From contig JBCCXZ010000014.1 of the NCBI GenBank assembly GCA_039190745.1, forward strand, positions 186 to 64,185: a stretch of 64,000 nt of DNA, written 5' to 3'. The position numbers and the translations under genes were made by a program. Each line of letters opens with the position of its first letter. Position 1 is the stretch's first letter. Shown in pieces: positions 35,962 to 46,248 of the stretch. Origin of the DNA: Planctomycetota bacterium. GTDB lineage: Bacteria; Planctomycetota; Planctomycetia; Pirellulales; Lacipirellulaceae. Under the pieces are notes generated by a model, which was given only the letters and a program-made list of their open reading frames with translations, searched no databases and was not told the origin of the DNA.

Positions 35962-35985
35962 ACAGTGGGCGATGAGGGACTCGAA
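35962..35985. repeat. att repeat (distal copy): ACAGTGGGCGATGAGGGACTCGAA
   Basis: Identical to 46204-46227, which is the 3' end of tRNA-Val; flanking bases differ on both sides. Confidence 0.85.
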
Positions 35986-36199
35986 TTCAGGCCGAATTCC
36001 CCGGAGAAAACGCGGGTTCTGCTGAAAGCGCTGCACCAGGCGCTGCACTCTTCACCCGATCGCCCCGGGCTCCGGTAGAATCCGGGCGTTCTAACTCAAG
36101 AGACCAACCAGCCGGGTAGCTCCCGGCGTCGGCTCCCCCGCCTGCGGCCTTTTCCTTTCTAGGCTGCGGCGGGCGGGTCGGGTTGGAGAAGGGAATCTG

Positions 36200-36769
36200 A
36201 TGCTGCCGCCACTCCCGCCGTCGTTCGACGAATGGCTATCAATGGCCAAGGAAGCGCTGGCCGAAAACTGCAGGCAGCACGTGGGCGAGCCACTCCAGCG
36301 TGGCTTGCCTGTCATCGCGCACATTGGAAAGCGGTATGTAGTCCTGGACCTGGGCGATGGTTGGCTACCCTATTGCGTTCCCAAGAACGCCCCCGATCAA
36401 GTCGAGGACGCATTTCAGGCGTTCGGCAGCCTGCGTGTGCTTGAGGGCAACTTTCACAAAGGGCCCGGCGGGCTTACCGACTGGGACGTGAGAGTTTCGT
36501 TCGGGCTGGGGCTACTGATGGGGCGGATGCACTTCGCTAGGCCGCTGGAGGAGTTTGCCGGCACGGGAGAGAAGGTCCGTCGCGGCGGGGCCGAAGGCGG
36601 GAAGATGAACGCCGCGGCAAGCGAAGTCGGGCAACAGGCGATCGCCGATGAGTGCCAGAAGCTAGTCGACGACGGCTACAGCATCCGGGCCGCGACTGGC
36701 GAGATCGCCACGAAGCATTGTGTCTCCCAAAGCACGGTCCGGCGCTACTGGAAAGCCCGATACCAGTAG
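36200..36769 (+). CDS. hypothetical protein with C-terminal HTH-like segment (element gene)
   Basis: 189-aa ORF; C-terminus YSIRAATGEIATKHCVSQSTVRRYWK resembles a resolvase/terminase-small-type HTH. Confidence 0.5.
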   Translation: MLPPLPPSFDEWLSMAKEALAENCRQHVGEPLQRGLPVIAHIGKRYVVLDLGDGWLPYCVPKNAPDQVEDAFQAFGSLRVLEGNFHKGPGGLTDWDVRVSFGLGLLMGRMHFARPLEEFAGTGEKVRRGGAEGGKMNAAASEVGQQAIADECQKLVDDGYSIRAATGEIATKHCVSQSTVRRYWKARYQ

Positions 36770-36884
36770 CGCGTCAGATGGCCTTGTGAAGCGCGCTTCA
36801 AACCTCCTTCTGGAGCGCCCTCTGCTCCTACACTGCCCTCAACGCCGCACGTCGCGGCATCTCTGAACCGCAGAGGGCAAACAG

Positions 36885-37094
36885 ATGGAAGCTACCGAAG
36901 GGCGTTTGCTCGTCCCGATCTCTGACGCCGCGAAGCTGCTTGGCGTGTCTGAACGAACCGTCTTCAGCATGACCCAAGCGGGGGAGCTCCCGTCCGTTCG
37001 GGTCCGCGGCCGGCGGATGTACCGCGTGGCCTCGATTGAGCAGTGGATTTCCGATAACGAGTTGCTCGCCTTGGAAACGGAGGGCAACCAATGA
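36885..37094 (+). CDS. excisionase-family / MerR-type HTH DNA-binding protein
   Basis: LLVPISDAAKLLGVSERTVFSMTQAGELPSVRVRGRRMYRVASIEQWI matches the HTH_17 (excisionase) pattern. Confidence 0.7.
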   Translation: MEATEGRLLVPISDAAKLLGVSERTVFSMTQAGELPSVRVRGRRMYRVASIEQWISDNELLALETEGNQ

Positions 37095-37456
37095 AGGCCC
37101 CCTTCGATTCAGCCGAGATCGACAAACGTCACGCAGGCAAGCTGCTGGAGGAACTAAAGAAGGGCGAAGCCCCTCAGCAGTTCTGTGTTGAGCCGGGCTA
37201 CCCAGTCCAGTGGCTCCAACTGGCGGCGGCCTGTCTTGCTCGGCACGCGATAAACGTAGAGCCGATCGAAGAAGGCAGGCCCTCCATGCCGTCTGACTTT
37301 CAGGATCGGTTGGAGGCTGCGGTCCAAGCGGCAACCATGCTGGCCTCGATGTTTGCCGATTCGCATGAGAAGCAAGAGAACTTCGAATGGGCCTACTCAC
37401 GACTGGAATGGAAACCTGGCCGCGTGGTCGTTGACGGTGAGGAGCTGCCGCTCTGA
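37091..37456 (+). CDS. hypothetical protein (element gene, 121 aa)
   Basis: ATGA overlap with the upstream gene and TGATG overlap with the downstream gene indicate translational coupling; no motif recognised. Confidence 0.5.
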   Translation: MKAPFDSAEIDKRHAGKLLEELKKGEAPQQFCVEPGYPVQWLQLAAACLARHAINVEPIEEGRPSMPSDFQDRLEAAVQAATMLASMFADSHEKQENFEWAYSRLEWKPGRVVVDGEELPL

Positions 37457-44113: not shown

Positions 44114-44312
44114 TGGGCGTCACGGATTGACCCCGCCCGCGGCCTTCCGCAAGAATGCTGGGGTCTAAGTGAACTGAAAGCGTCAAATGTCAAACCCAAC
44201 TGAAATCAGAGCGCAGCCGCTGCGCGAGTGTCGGATACCGGCGACGGCCCGGGGTGGTTCAGTTCCACCTGACAACACTCGTTCGGCGGCTGCGCTTTCT
44301 TTGCGCGCTCCT

Positions 44313-44386
44313 CAGGTGTCATCCGATGACACCGCCCATCAACTGGCGGAATCAGCCAGTTGGGGCCAACTGGCAACGTTGCCAGT
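44313..44386. promoter_or_regulatory. cluster of nested palindromes (operator-like) between tape measure gene and integrase
   Basis: GGTGTCATCCGATGACACC (44315-44333); CAACTGGC..GCCAGTTG (44340-44362); CCAGTTGG/CCAACTGG (44356-44373); perfect 16-bp CTGGCAACGTTGCCAG (44370-44385). Confidence 0.4.
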
Positions 44387-44418
44387 AGCGACCACGGGCG
44401 TGCAGAAAGGAATCGACG

Positions 44419-44889
44419 ATGTCGACCTACGTTCGTTACACCACGCTGCGGATGCGTCTCTGGGTTGCCTGACTCCTCACGCGGCACCCCAAGTTCCGTC
44501 CGATCTACTCGGCGGACGTCGTTTCGTTTGACCCGCTCTCGCAGGCGGAATTCCTTTGCGACGCTGGATACCACGTCGCCGCTGCGATGCTGGCCAGAGC
44601 GGGCGTAGAGGCCCGCGTGAAGCGGCTGGCGTTGATCTCACCAAGGTGGCGTGAGTGTCGGACCAATTCGCTCGCTGGATTCGCCGGCTTCCTGGTGGCT
44701 CAAGGTGTGCTCTCCAGTAAGCACCGGCGGAAAATATCTTCGTTCTACAAACGGGCGAGCACGGTTTGCCACGGCGACTTCCAGGACCGCAGCCGTTGCG
44801 TCGACCTGCTCTATACGGCCCGGAAGATTCACACCGCGTGCGACACAGCGACCCGTCGACTGCTGGCGGGTGAAGTGGAGCTTGGCTAA
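44419..44889 (+). pseudogene. 157-codon reading frame interrupted by one in-frame TGA (44470-44472); possible nonsense pseudogene or short leader peptide plus downstream ORF
   Basis: ATG at 44419 preceded by AAAGGA; strong G/C third-position bias continues through the TGA to the TAA at 44887-44889. The tracked ORF (44587..44889) is only its tail. Confidence 0.3.
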
Positions 44890-44976
44890 CCCCGATCCCC
44901 GTCGCCTCACCGTGGGGCGGCGGGGGAGTTCTGTGGCTGAATTGATTCAGCCACAACCAAAACGCAGGAGACAACG

Positions 44977-46248
44977 ATGGCATCACTGCAATCAAGAAGA
45001 GGCGGCAAGAGCTGGTACATCCAGTTCGAAGACCGCAACCGTGCCCGCCGGACGATCACGCTCGGGAAGATACCCCAGCGGGCGGCTCAGCAAACGCTCA
45101 TCCACGTTGAGAAGCTCGCCGCAGCTCAGATTGCCGGCACGGCGCCAGACCCCGACACAAGCCGCTGGCTAGCCGCTGCAAGCGAGAAGCTGACGGCCAA
45201 GCTCTCTAGAGCAGGACTGATCGAGACGCGGCAGAATGCCACGCTCGGGGCGTTCATCGACGCCTACGATGAGGGGCGGGAAGCCGATCCGAAGATCAAG
45301 GCCACGACGATCGCCGCGAGTCGCTCGACCTACAAGAGCCTGCGGAGCTACTTCGGCGAAAGCAGGCCGCTGCGGGCGATATCGAAGGGAGAGGCGAAGG
45401 CCTGGCGTGTGAGCGTGTCGAAGGGCAGGGCGGAGAACACCGTCCGGAAGTGGACGGCGGCGGCAAAGAAGCTCTTCAACGCGGCCATCGAGCACGAGCT
45501 GATTGAGGTAAACCCGTTCGTCGGCTTGCCGTCGAGCACGATGGAGGTACGGGAGCGGGACTACTTCCTGAGCCCCGAGGACGCGTCCAAGGTGCTCGCG
45601 ACCTGTCCAAGCATCGAGTGGAAGCTGATCTTCGCTCTGGCCCGCTACGGCGGTCTCCGGTGCCCCTCCGAAGTCCTGTCGCTCCGTTGGGGCGACGTGC
45701 TATGGGACCACAAGCGGATCATCGTCAACTCACCCAAGACCGAGCACCACGACGGCCACGACTCACGAGTTATCCCGTTGTGGCCAGAATTGGAACAGCT
45801 GCTAGCCGAAGCCTTCGAAGCGGCACCGGAAGGGGCTGAGTTCGTGGTGAGCAAAACCCGCGACACAGCAGCGAACCTGCGGACGACCATGCAGAAGATC
45901 GTTCAGCGTGCAGGCCTGCGCCCCTGGCCGAAGATCTTCCAGAACCTGCGGAGCACGCGTGCCACCGAGCTCGCCGATCGGTTCCCCGATTACGTAGCCG
46001 CGGCGTGGATCGGCCACAGCGTGAAGGTGGCCCGACGCAGCTACTGGCAGATTACCGACGACCACTTCGAGGAAGCGACCGGCGAAAGCGCTGCAAATGC
46101 GCTGCAGAAGGTGCTCGCAAGAGACGGCAAGGCGCTACCGCTCGGGGAGGCGGAGCCTACAATTGCAGCGGCGTGCGATCTCTTGCAACTACTGTCAACT
46201 TGTACAGTGGGCGATGAGGGACTCGAACCCCCGACATCCACGGTGTAA
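44977..46248 (+). CDS. tyrosine-type site-specific integrase
   Basis: 423 aa; N-terminal SAM-like arm/core-binding region. Catalytic region has ARYGGLRCPSEVLSLRW, ...FQNLRSTRATELA, AAWIGHSVKVARRSYWQ (R..HxxR..Y pattern). The 3' end runs into the att core and tRNA. Confidence 0.9.
   Translation: MASLQSRRGGKSWYIQFEDRNRARRTITLGKIPQRAAQQTLIHVEKLAAAQIAGTAPDPDTSRWLAAASEKLTAKLSRAGLIETRQNATLGAFIDAYDEGREADPKIKATTIAASRSTYKSLRSYFGESRPLRAISKGEAKAWRVSVSKGRAENTVRKWTAAAKKLFNAAIEHELIEVNPFVGLPSSTMEVRERDYFLSPEDASKVLATCPSIEWKLIFALARYGGLRCPSEVLSLRWGDVLWDHKRIIVNSPKTEHHDGHDSRVIPLWPELEQLLAEAFEAAPEGAEFVVSKTRDTAANLRTTMQKIVQRAGLRPWPKIFQNLRSTRATELADRFPDYVAAAWIGHSVKVARRSYWQITDDHFEEATGESAANALQKVLARDGKALPLGEAEPTIAAACDLLQLLSTCTVGDEGLEPPTSTV
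46204..46227. repeat. att repeat (tRNA-proximal copy): ACAGTGGGCGATGAGGGACTCGAA
   Basis: Identical to 35962-35985; covers the T-arm 3' half and acceptor 3' strand of tRNA-Val plus 4 nt beyond. Confidence 0.85.

Follow-up and report, generated by a model that had tools for sequence, protein, structure and literature searches.

A tRNA-Val-integrated element of 10.3 kb in a Planctomycetota genome, encoding its own capsid and tape measure proteins, is a probable phage satellite

The question raised by this locus is what kind of mobile element would encode a major capsid protein (MCP) and a tail tape measure protein (TMP) as its sole virion genes. The element occupies positions 35962-46227 of a 64,000-nt stretch of contig JBCCXZ010000014.1 (Planctomycetota; assembly GCA_039190745.1), hereafter referred to as the window. 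An original prediction leaned towards a helper-dependent satellite over a prophage remnant, and this choice is supported both by recurrence of the arrangement in other genomes and by the discordant ancestry of the two virion proteins. We consider it probable (approximately 0.65) that the region is an intact integrated phage satellite of ~10.3 kb, functional and belonging to a genuine satellite lineage. Judged by sequence comparison, that lineage appears to comprise widespread tRNA-targeting elements of ~7.5-11 kb that share a distinctive clade of HK97-fold MCPs.

The element is delimited by a 24-bp core, ACAGTGGGCGATGAGGGACTCGAA, of which the window contains two exact copies (35962-35985 and 46204-46227); the repeat was matched in none of 100 dinucleotide-preserving shuffles. 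The right copy consists of the 3' 21 nt of a tRNA-Val(tac) gene (69.4 bits with the Rfam model) plus 3 nt, giving an element span of 10.27 kb. The perfect repeat and its overlap with tRNA-Val(TAC) were both part of the original prediction and were recovered here. The attachment sites, their target and the integrase gene are as follows.

35962-35985: attL, the left 24-bp core copy, which is the displaced tRNA-Val 3' end (exact repeat)
46204-46227: attR, the right 24-bp core copy (exact repeat)
46207-46281, minus strand: tRNA-Val(TAC), the integration target (ARAGORN; Rfam RF00005)
44977-46248, plus strand: tyrosine integrase, 423 aa when integrated (PF00589, 2.6e-10; phrog_1, 1.1e-32)

The element therefore displays the features of a tRNA-integrating tyrosine-recombinase element, namely a repeat overlapping the tRNA 3' end and an intact integrase beside the attachment site. 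Its G+C content (0.60-0.64) does not differ from that of the flanks, which carry cellular genes (for an ABC-F ATPase to the left and for a Ser/Thr kinase to the right), and no phage gene was found outside the element within the window. The integrase ORF passes through the attR core, which it enters at the first base (codon ACA, 46204), and on into tRNA-Val. When integrated, it stops six codons inside the tRNA; in the excised attP form it would continue to the right of attL (35986-36078) as far as a TAG approximately 30 codons on, giving ~447 aa (worked by hand). Integration and excision would thus leave the integrase with different C-termini.

The two virion genes lie in the centre of the element.

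40626-42086, plus strand: HK97-fold MCP, 486 aa (PF05065, 1.9e-32; TIGR01554, 8.1e-37; phrog_10, 8.9e-45)
42182-44113, plus strand: tail length TMP, 643 aa from GTG 42182 (PF10145, 8.4e-27; TIGR01760, 1.3e-31; phrog_1533, 4.9e-43)

Searches of the element ORFs against Pfam, PHROGs and NCBIfam returned no match to terminase, portal, protease, connector, tail tube, baseplate or lysis families, in agreement with the absences listed in the original prediction. That prediction had also asked whether portal or terminase genes might be concealed among the hypothetical ORFs; none was found, and as the unassigned ORFs are all at most 189 aa, a cryptic large terminase subunit (TerL) or portal is excluded by size alone. 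In the AlphaFold2 (AF2) model of the MCP (pLDDT 82.9), four long N-terminal helices precede a canonical HK97 fold. The helical extension, of ~110-200 aa, is scaffold/delta-like, and the best Foldseek matches of the model were the RcGTA capsid (2.2e-15) and HK97 (1e-13). The MCP has 48 detectable relatives in an index of 5.8 billion proteins, the nearest being 44-49 % identical, and amongst the deposited phages of INPHARED neither the MCP nor the TMP exceeded 31 % identity to any record, which leaves no isolated phage as a helper or relative.

The genomic context of the MCP was surveyed using the set of 48 relatives plus 80 genome loci and 65 IMG/VR loci recovered by MCP alignment, which were annotated with seed hidden Markov models (HMMs) validated against Pfam and PHROGs. 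Based on our own ORF calls and these HMMs, the 116 loci with close MCP relatives (loci are designated by L numbers) were classed into the following architectures.

Type A, 64 of 116 loci: integrase, replicase (DUF3987 with or without Toprim; AAA_25; D5_N), MCP, then host genes
Type B, 12 of 116 loci, plus the window: as type A, with a TMP gene starting 60-580 bp after the MCP gene
Type C, 23 of 116 loci (TerL and/or portal present): HNH, TerL, MCP, portal, integrase; mostly small contigs of ~8-12 kb
Unclassed, 17 of 116 loci: contigs too short

Flanking direct repeats were identified at 53 loci and delimited sizes of 7.4-11.2 kb (median 9.2 kb, with one 4.6-kb outlier); in 21 of these the repeats were at least 30 bp long and mostly tRNA-like. 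The repeat-bounded sizes and the architectures together indicate that this MCP is characteristic of small integrative elements and not of full prophages. More distant MCPs (phmmer score <65) occurred mostly in ordinary phages with TerL, portal, ClpP and MCP genes. Relatives with an MCP only are far commoner than those with both MCP and TMP, and many type A relatives carry a P4-type integrase (Arm-DNA-bind_3) together with Toprim+DUF3987 primase-helicases. The MCP subclade to which the element belongs comprises four loci. A scan of metagenome contigs (JGI collection) yielded no closer relative, and matches to the subclade amongst viral contigs (IMG/VR) were all at most 38 % identical. Replicase-based scans recovered 27 loci in which the seeds recognized no MCP or TMP cargo, except for the ordinary phage L191, and were uninformative on the family.

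Two further arrangements were observed within the MCP clade. At L106 (2860-15412) and L107 (2783-17513), a ~7.6-kb type A element sits between the HNH gene of a prophage and TerL, portal and ClpP genes, the insertion in L106 being bounded by a 42-bp non-tRNA repeat. This helper-embedded arrangement appears to tie the MCP clade physically to HNH/cos-type phages. The IMG/VR contig L120 (79-9841) contains a 9.7-kb element with a 46-bp tRNA-Asn repeat and genes for an integrase, HNH, MCP, portal and TMP, a gene content suggestive of an intermediate between the MCP+TMP type and the types bearing TerL and portal.

The pairing of MCP and TMP is conserved in the subclade and recurs beyond it. In all four subclade members (the element, L001, L008 and L167) the TMP gene directly follows the MCP gene. 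L001 has the same order as the element across four genes, comprising a conserved 124-aa protein (orf124; 37 % identity), a helix-turn-helix (HTH) protein (45 %), the MCP (46 %) and the TMP (45 %). The MCP gene of L008 (Lacipirellula, Planctomycetota) and that of L167 are each followed by a TMP of phrog_9483 (1.5e-41 and 9e-19, respectively) that has no BLAST similarity to the TMP of the element. Outside the subclade, a PHROG search identified eight loci with a TMP gene right after the MCP gene, in Rhodanobacteraceae (L025), Aerolutibacter ruishenii (L026), Cognatiluteimonas telluris (L030), Neorhizobium (L031), Aeromicrobium (L080) and Steroidobacteraceae (L082), and on the IMG/VR contigs L112 and L113. 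The same arrangement is present on a third IMG/VR contig, L114, where the TMP was called by phmmer only. A search of related genomes for the same compact gene order had been suggested originally as a check, and the order does recur, in 4/4 subclade members and at least nine further loci, with eight of the elements that have att repeats measuring ~9.0-10.8 kb. The MCP+TMP type thus appears not to be specific to Planctomycetes, being represented in Pseudomonadota and Actinomycetota as well as on IMG/VR contigs.

The type B TMPs outside the subclade belong to PHROG families 24, 13338/8462, 17300, 305 and 2854 and are 538-1281 aa long. Across the 13 loci, type B TMPs span at least seven families, and its members branch off at no fewer than six separate places in the MCP tree (a rough neighbour-joining tree without support values). 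Eight MCP+TMP elements of ~9.0-10.8 kb are flanked by repeats, six of them by repeats of at least 24 bp. Repeat-delimited type B sizes were 10.8, 10.2, 10.1, ~9.5, 9.9 and 9.0 kb, the element itself measuring 10.27 kb; the sizes for L082 and L031 rest on 14- and 15-bp repeats. The ORF maps of these elements contain no gene large enough for TerL or portal. The element shares what characterizes type B as a whole, with an MCP of the clade, a TMP gene within ~600 bp, att-bounded ends ~9-11 kb apart and no TerL or portal. Similarities of gene order extend further: L026 has the order of the element (HNH, HTH, MCP, TMP), L025 carries a small terminase subunit (TerS; phrog_641, 1.1e-18) between MCP and TMP, and L031 runs MCP, TMP, HNH, integrase, tRNA-Val(tac), the element likewise ending with its integrase and tRNA-Val(tac). 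In L112 and L113, the TMP measures 1,242-1,281 aa in elements of 9.7-9.9 kb and takes up nearly 40 % of the element, which is hard to square with a neutral passenger.

The TMP of the element has more than 2,500 relatives, the best of which are 55-68 % identical across approximately the first 370 aa; source names place several of these in metagenome-assembled genomes (MAGs) of Planctomycetota or Pirellulales. At four loci (L088, L089, L090 and L169), the TMP, of 579-635 aa, lies in a complete morphogenesis module of an HK97-like siphophage. Identity to these siphophage TMPs was 66 % for L088, 65 % for L089 and 55 % for L090 over an alignment covering residues 5-373. Residues 100-350 are 60-80 % identical to phage TMPs and the C-terminal half 10-30 %. 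The last 50 aa are 37-39 % identical to the TMPs of L088-L090, an alignment indicating that the TMP of the element is full length. At the N-terminus, the public annotation starts the gene 68 codons downstream (575 aa, cluster P0049), whereas phage homology begins at residue 5 of the ORF from GTG 42182, and the 643-aa form is probably correct. The MCP compares differently with the same phages, being only ~28 % identical to that of L088 and yielding no alignment with that of L090 at E <= 1e-3. The TMP of the element also resembles phage TMPs more closely than it does that of the sibling element L001. With 66 % identity for the TMP and ~28 % for the MCP, the histories of the two proteins are discordant, and the comparisons suggest that the MCP has been inherited within the element lineage whilst the TMP has been exchanged with phages. 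The complete TMP-bearing relatives L088, L090 and L169 do display terminase, portal, tail and lysis-type prophage genes, which the element lacks.

A different combination was seen in a small element of a Pirellulales MAG (L170, 3153-12165), whose DnaB-N/AAA_25 replicase is 36 % identical over 519 aa to that of the element. Its cargo includes a TMP, 61 % identical to that of the element, alongside a ClpP-type protease and weak matches to Terminase_4 (TerS) and Peptidase_S78; no MCP, TerL or portal was called. Planctomycetota elements thus appear to combine a TMP with varying head-related cargo.

All supported genes between the repeats lie on the plus strand, and the ORF coordinates fit start/stop overlaps at 37091, 37456, 40402 and 40626, consistent with the coupled, one-strand gene set described in the original prediction. 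The features accompanying the integrase and virion genes are as follows.

36200-36769, plus strand: hypothetical 189-aa protein with a possible C-terminal HTH, perhaps a regulator (sub-threshold HTH_28/HTH_23, E ~0.1)
36885-37094, plus strand: excisionase-type HTH protein, 69 aa (HTH_17, 9.4e-12; phrog_66, 9.8e-09; TIGR01764 'excise', 3.3e-10)
37091-37456, plus strand: hypothetical 121-aa protein, translationally coupled to its neighbours (ORF coordinates; no family match)
37456-38982, plus strand: replicase with DnaB-N and AAA_25 domains (RepA/DnaB-like ATPase), 508 aa (PF00772, 3.2e-17; PF13481, 4.4e-21; phrog_19, 3.3e-18)
38987-39133, no strand assigned: iteron cluster, putative replication origin (GTCCGAGTGGTC copies)
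39345-39704, plus strand: HNH endonuclease of the kind accompanying terminases of cos/HNH phages (PF01844, 2.1e-10; phrog_144, 6.3e-33; phrog_4581 (HNH-TerS), 3.7e-12)
39778-40035, plus strand: Zn-ribbon protein, 85 aa, CxxC...CxxC (sequence; weak Zn-binding matches only)
40028-40402, plus strand: orf124, a conserved 124-aa helical protein tied to the MCP module (no family match; homologues just upstream of MCP in relatives)
40402-40626, plus strand: 74-aa HTH_17 protein right before the MCP (HTH_17, 7.6e-07; phrog_66, 4.5e-09; phrog_57 (TerS N-terminus), 1.2e-06)
44114-44976, no strand assigned: 863-bp stretch without a supported gene, possibly a regulatory, attP-arm or packaging/cos region (ORF and repeat scans)

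Profile searches of Pfam, PHROGs and NCBIfam upheld the original calls of an excisionase, a DnaB-N/AAA_25 replicase, an HNH nuclease, an HK97 MCP, a TMP and a tyrosine integrase. The iteron cluster proposed to follow the replicase was likewise found, with three exact copies of GTCCGAGTGGTC (at 39076, 39089 and 39122) just 3' of the replicase gene, degenerate and inverted copies close by and no further exact copy within the window; iterons beside a replicase gene fit a replication origin. Two calls required revision. The product of 36200-36769, originally an HTH protein, matched no Pfam, PHROG, NCBIfam or PADLOC family and retains only its sub-threshold HTH similarity, and the supposed AlpA-type regulator reached E 0.0016 and 18.7 bits with Phage_AlpA, under the 21-bit cut-off, and is better described as a 74-aa HTH_17 protein. 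Orthologues of the latter hold the same place in L001, L167 and the contig of P0003, and a role as regulator or packaging-specificity factor is possible. The HNH gene occupies the same upstream position in L026, L120 and type C elements.

Homologues of orf124 were located immediately 5' of the MCP gene in L001 (37 % identity), L167 (44 %) and L008 (31 %), and an exhaustive search of 1.84 billion proteins returned 58 cluster representatives. Its AF2 model (pLDDT 94.4) gave no significant match via Foldseek (PDB, BFVD) or a PDB-sequence profile search. Residues 52-102 are matched by the giant proteins P0171, P0173 and P0213 (1,932-3,343 aa), with 13-15 orf124-like repeats in P0171 and P0173 and a single one in P0213; the repeated matches indicate that the central helix pair of orf124 also exists elsewhere as a tandem repeat module. 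In L008 (9378-9953), a single 191-aa protein has a Zn-ribbon at its N-terminus and an orf124-like domain at its C-terminus, a fusion which suggests that the Zn-ribbon protein of the element and the overlapping orf124 may act together. The Zn-ribbon protein was also considered as a late activator of the P2 Ogr / P4 Delta type, which is speculation only, as no Ogr_Delta match was obtained even at E up to 10.

The 863-bp stretch contains inverted repeats of 22 nt (44210-44231/44275-44296, 86 %) and, just before the integrase start, a perfect pair of 11 nt (44932-44942/44945-44955). Its ORFs have low GC3 or no family and had no PADLOC match, and the two plus-strand ORFs checked against Pfam had no match there either. 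An Rfam scan found the tRNA as the sole RNA, with none in this stretch, and promoter and terminator scans gave counts no higher than chance. PADLOC searches of the accessory genes returned no defence family beyond generic HNH similarity.

Several explanations for this gene set were weighed together. The order HNH, MCP, TMP, integrase is collinear with that of the siphophages in L088, L090 and L169, and the function of the element is putative, both of which would fit a deletion remnant of an ordinary HK97-like prophage in which the MCP came to lie beside the TMP by accident after loss of TerL, portal, protease, head-tail and tail tube genes. Had the element arisen from one prophage by a simple internal deletion, MCP (28 %) and TMP (66 %) would not be expected to differ in ancestry relative to the same phages. 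The adjacency also recurs with clean 60-580-bp spacers in 13 loci representing at least seven TMP families and at least six MCP-tree positions, and eight repeat-flanked elements measure 9-10.8 kb, six with repeats of at least 24 bp. Preservation of the four-gene block in L001 at only 37-46 % amino acid identity indicates long-term purifying selection. The original argument from intactness also stands against decay, as the att repeats are exact, the integrase is full length and no ORF is broken. We therefore judge a prophage remnant very unlikely and already largely refuted: a decayed prophage does not jointly explain recurrence, size range, intactness, block conservation and discordance, and a satellite is the best reading of these data.

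Alternatives in which the virion proteins serve another purpose were also considered. Heads and tails depend at an early stage of their assembly on the MCP and the TMP, respectively, and the TMP of the element retains the helper-like N-terminal domain needed to enter the helper assembly pathway. Both proteins could in principle be 'poison' subunits of an interference or defence island that derails siphophage head and tail assembly and so protects the host population, with little or no self-transfer. Known satellites misdirect capsid assembly. Blockage of tail assembly by satellites and prophages is also known, from the Tai systems (PMC11364771). The size of ~9-11 kb, the integrase and excisionase, the replicase and iterons and the packaging-type HNH/TerS genes point instead to a packaged mobile unit, and the accessory genes match no PADLOC family. 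Interference is an unlikely explanation on its own, and being compatible with piracy would be a sub-function rather than a true alternative. An autonomous 'mini' HK97 virus or virus-like element, with portal-less, tail-less shells and helper-free movement, has been speculated upon for the 'twilight' HK97 genomes, which are complete at 5-11.6 kb and combine an HK97 MCP with an integrase and a replicase (10.1101/2025.06.18.659913). We regard such autonomy as highly improbable here, given that a TMP has no known function absent a tail tube, chaperones and tip, that the TMP in question is close kin of working siphophage TMPs, that no lysis or packaging ATPase gene was detected (Pfam, PHROGs, NCBIfam), that the HNH gene, and TerS in L025, point to terminase-dependent packaging, and that the MCP matches PF05065 and not the encapsulin family. 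We give hardly any credence to domestication of the MCP to form an encapsulin-like compartment or to serve the cell in some other way, with the TMP as a passenger. Encapsulins share the HK97 fold, and encapsulin 9fy6 appears in the Foldseek list of the MCP (E 3.7e-12, rank 40), but the best structure and sequence matches are phage and gene transfer agent capsids, no cargo enzyme gene is present, the gene sits in a mobile replicative element with a phage-type HNH and a TMP, and the repeated replacement of the TMP speaks for selection acting on it.

If the element is a satellite, its gene content suggests how its cycle might proceed. Upon induction of, or infection by, a helper siphophage of the HNH/cos, TerS-TerL-portal-ClpP type, the integrase and HTH_17 excisionase would excise the element at the 24-bp core, the replicase would amplify it from the adjacent iterons, and the coupled late block (HNH, Zn-ribbon, orf124, HTH_17, MCP and TMP) would be expressed. 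The satellite MCP, through its helical N-terminal scaffold-like domain, would build ~10-kb-sized shells on the helper portal, admitting the satellite genome and shutting out that of the helper. The helper terminase would package satellite DNA with the help of the satellite HNH and possibly of the small HTH protein, and helper tail proteins would assemble around the satellite TMP, whose helper-like N-terminal 370 aa and extreme C-terminus may fit helper chaperones, tube and tip. The TMP leads DNA across the recipient envelope. Cumby and co-workers (2012 and 2015, cited in PMC11364771) reportedly established that superinfection-exclusion proteins of HK97 prophages act on TMP-dependent injection. 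Since helper lysogens would be the most profitable cells for a satellite to enter, an own TMP could bypass such a block, serving as an injection device into cells that block TMP-dependent entry of the helper, for example helper lysogens with superinfection exclusion. The satellite TMP would also secure the tail supply, and this, like interference with helper tail assembly, may be an alternative or additional role; any specific role of the TMP is far less certain than the satellite nature of the element. As a tentative generalization, to which we assign slightly less than even odds, these elements could form a cross-phylum, hitherto unrecognized family of ~10-kb satellites with a dedicated MCP shell and their own TMP, swapped repeatedly to match the helper siphophage, the purpose of which could be delivery into helper-excluding cells.

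A number of points weigh against the satellite reading. Excision, replication, packaging and the helper are all proposed from gene content, and no helper prophage is present within the window. An MCP only ~28 % identical to that of the putative helper would not obviously be able to use the helper portal and protease, and we know of no MCP-only satellite that has been established experimentally. TerS is not recognizable in the window. Given that ordinary phage TMPs also typically diverge in their C-terminal half, this divergence lends no specific support to a bypass of exclusion. The scans of IMG/VR and JGI metagenomes, with no close relative of the MCP subclade, provide no virome evidence of encapsidation for it. 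A distant TerL or portal could have escaped the ORF calls and seed HMMs on which the type A, B and C assignments rest, a risk that the size argument lowers for att-bounded elements.

Should the generalization to an MCP+TMP satellite family hold, its members would be the first satellites found to supply an internal component for the tail and for injection. Phage satellites are currently defined and detected as tail-gene-free, either as capsid remodellers (PICI, P4, PLE) or as carriers of a full head and packaging set (cf-PICI), and a size-constrained element with MCP and TMP as sole virion genes breaks both patterns. Because detectors treat tail genes as 'forbidden', MCP+TMP elements are rejected by design and surveys may systematically miss them. 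The arrangement further implies that an MCP alone may suffice to hijack the portal and terminase of a helper, and that a tape measure can be worth up to 40 % of a satellite genome. To our knowledge, few phages have been described for Planctomycetota, and the element would be the first concrete satellite-helper lead in this phylum. The presence of related elements in the cultured carriers Aerolutibacter ruishenii CGMCC 1.10136, Cognatiluteimonas telluris YJ15, Neorhizobium sp. SHOUNA12A and Aeromicrobium sp. Root495 renders these questions directly testable.

Comparison with known systems places the element near several satellite families. Typical cf-PICIs measure ~15 kb, as opposed to ~10 kb here. 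The element resembles them in being integrase-bearing with its own replicase, HNH and HK97-type MCP (Alqurainy et al. 2023; SatelliteFinder model PMC10085698) and, as far as can be presumed from genes alone, in forming small satellite-only capsids and relying on a helper for the rest. Whereas cf-PICIs carry TerS, TerL, portal, protease, head-tail adaptor and connector and steal tails only, the element has of the cf-PICI set only the MCP and HNH, and its TMP (42182-44113) is a tail gene of the kind that the cf-PICI model forbids (PMC10085698). The type C relatives, with HNH, TerL, MCP, portal and integrase in 8-12 kb, are those that resemble cf-PICIs. Likeness to PICIs and SaPIs lies in the integrase, the excisionase/AlpA-like HTH, a pri-rep-type replicase with adjacent origin, the compact one-directional layout, the att-bounded insertion (in a tRNA gene here) and use of a helper through capsid-size redirection, which for the element is conjectural. 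PICIs remodel the capsid protein of the helper with small scaffolds (Cpm, Ppi, Rpp, TerS) and encode no MCP or tail protein; from the PICI core set the element has integrase and replicase, AlpA falls below the cut-off (E 0.0016), no TerS, Cpm, Ppi or Rpp match was found (Pfam, PHROGs, NCBIfam), and the TMP violates the prohibition of tail genes in the PICI model (PMC10085698). P4-like satellites are similar in size (~10-11.6 kb), tRNA-proximal tyrosine integrase, replicase with its own origin and small regulators. P4 reshapes the capsids of its helper P2 by means of Sid, Psu and Delta and encodes no MCP or TMP, whereas no Psu, Sid, Delta or Ogr_Delta was found amongst the Pfam matches of the element (small ORFs at E up to 10), the replicase is of the DnaB-N/AAA_25 and not the P4 alpha type, and the implied helper is a siphophage rather than a P2-like myophage. 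Both P4 (11.6 kb) and SaPI1 use T=4 capsids (10.1101/2025.06.18.659913).

Three further groups are relevant. The Streptomyces satellites MulchRoom and MiniFlayer (PMC10690885) also encode their own MCP, and MiniFlayer has a tail fibre gene, but they carry TerS, TerL, portal, scaffold and adaptor genes, have no replication genes, measure 14-17 kb with direct terminal repeats (DTRs) and have no reported TMP. VEIMEs mostly have no capsid genes. The 'twilight/mini' HK97 genomes of Aguilar et al. (10.1101/2025.06.18.659913), at 5-11.6 kb, have genes for an MCP, an integrase and a replicase but lack those for portal, terminase and tails; a tail gene is present in 4.3 % of them, with one TMP noted as an oddity. 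The element fits them in size and core content. The clade defined in that study consists of human-gut DTR viral contigs enriched in encapsulin domains and read as possibly autonomous and tail-less, in contrast to the PF05065-type MCP without encapsulin signal, tRNA integration, environmental hosts and conserved MCP-TMP unit of the element. The pairing of MCP and TMP as a conserved unit went unrecognized in that study, although the general class was not wholly unseen. Beyond that preprint, we found no MCP-only or MCP+TMP satellite in full-text literature, a search that does not prove absence as most subscription journals lie outside its coverage. Features of a complete temperate Caudoviricetes prophage (TerL, portal, tail tube/sheath, lysis) are absent from the element by profile search. 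In sum, the element seems to match no described satellite family, departing from cf-PICI and P4-like features and breaking the no-tail rule of PICIs and cf-PICIs, as the mismatch noted in the original prediction had suggested, and at the same time it has the general make-up of a satellite: its own integration and replication functions, without genes for TerL, portal, tail tube or lysis.

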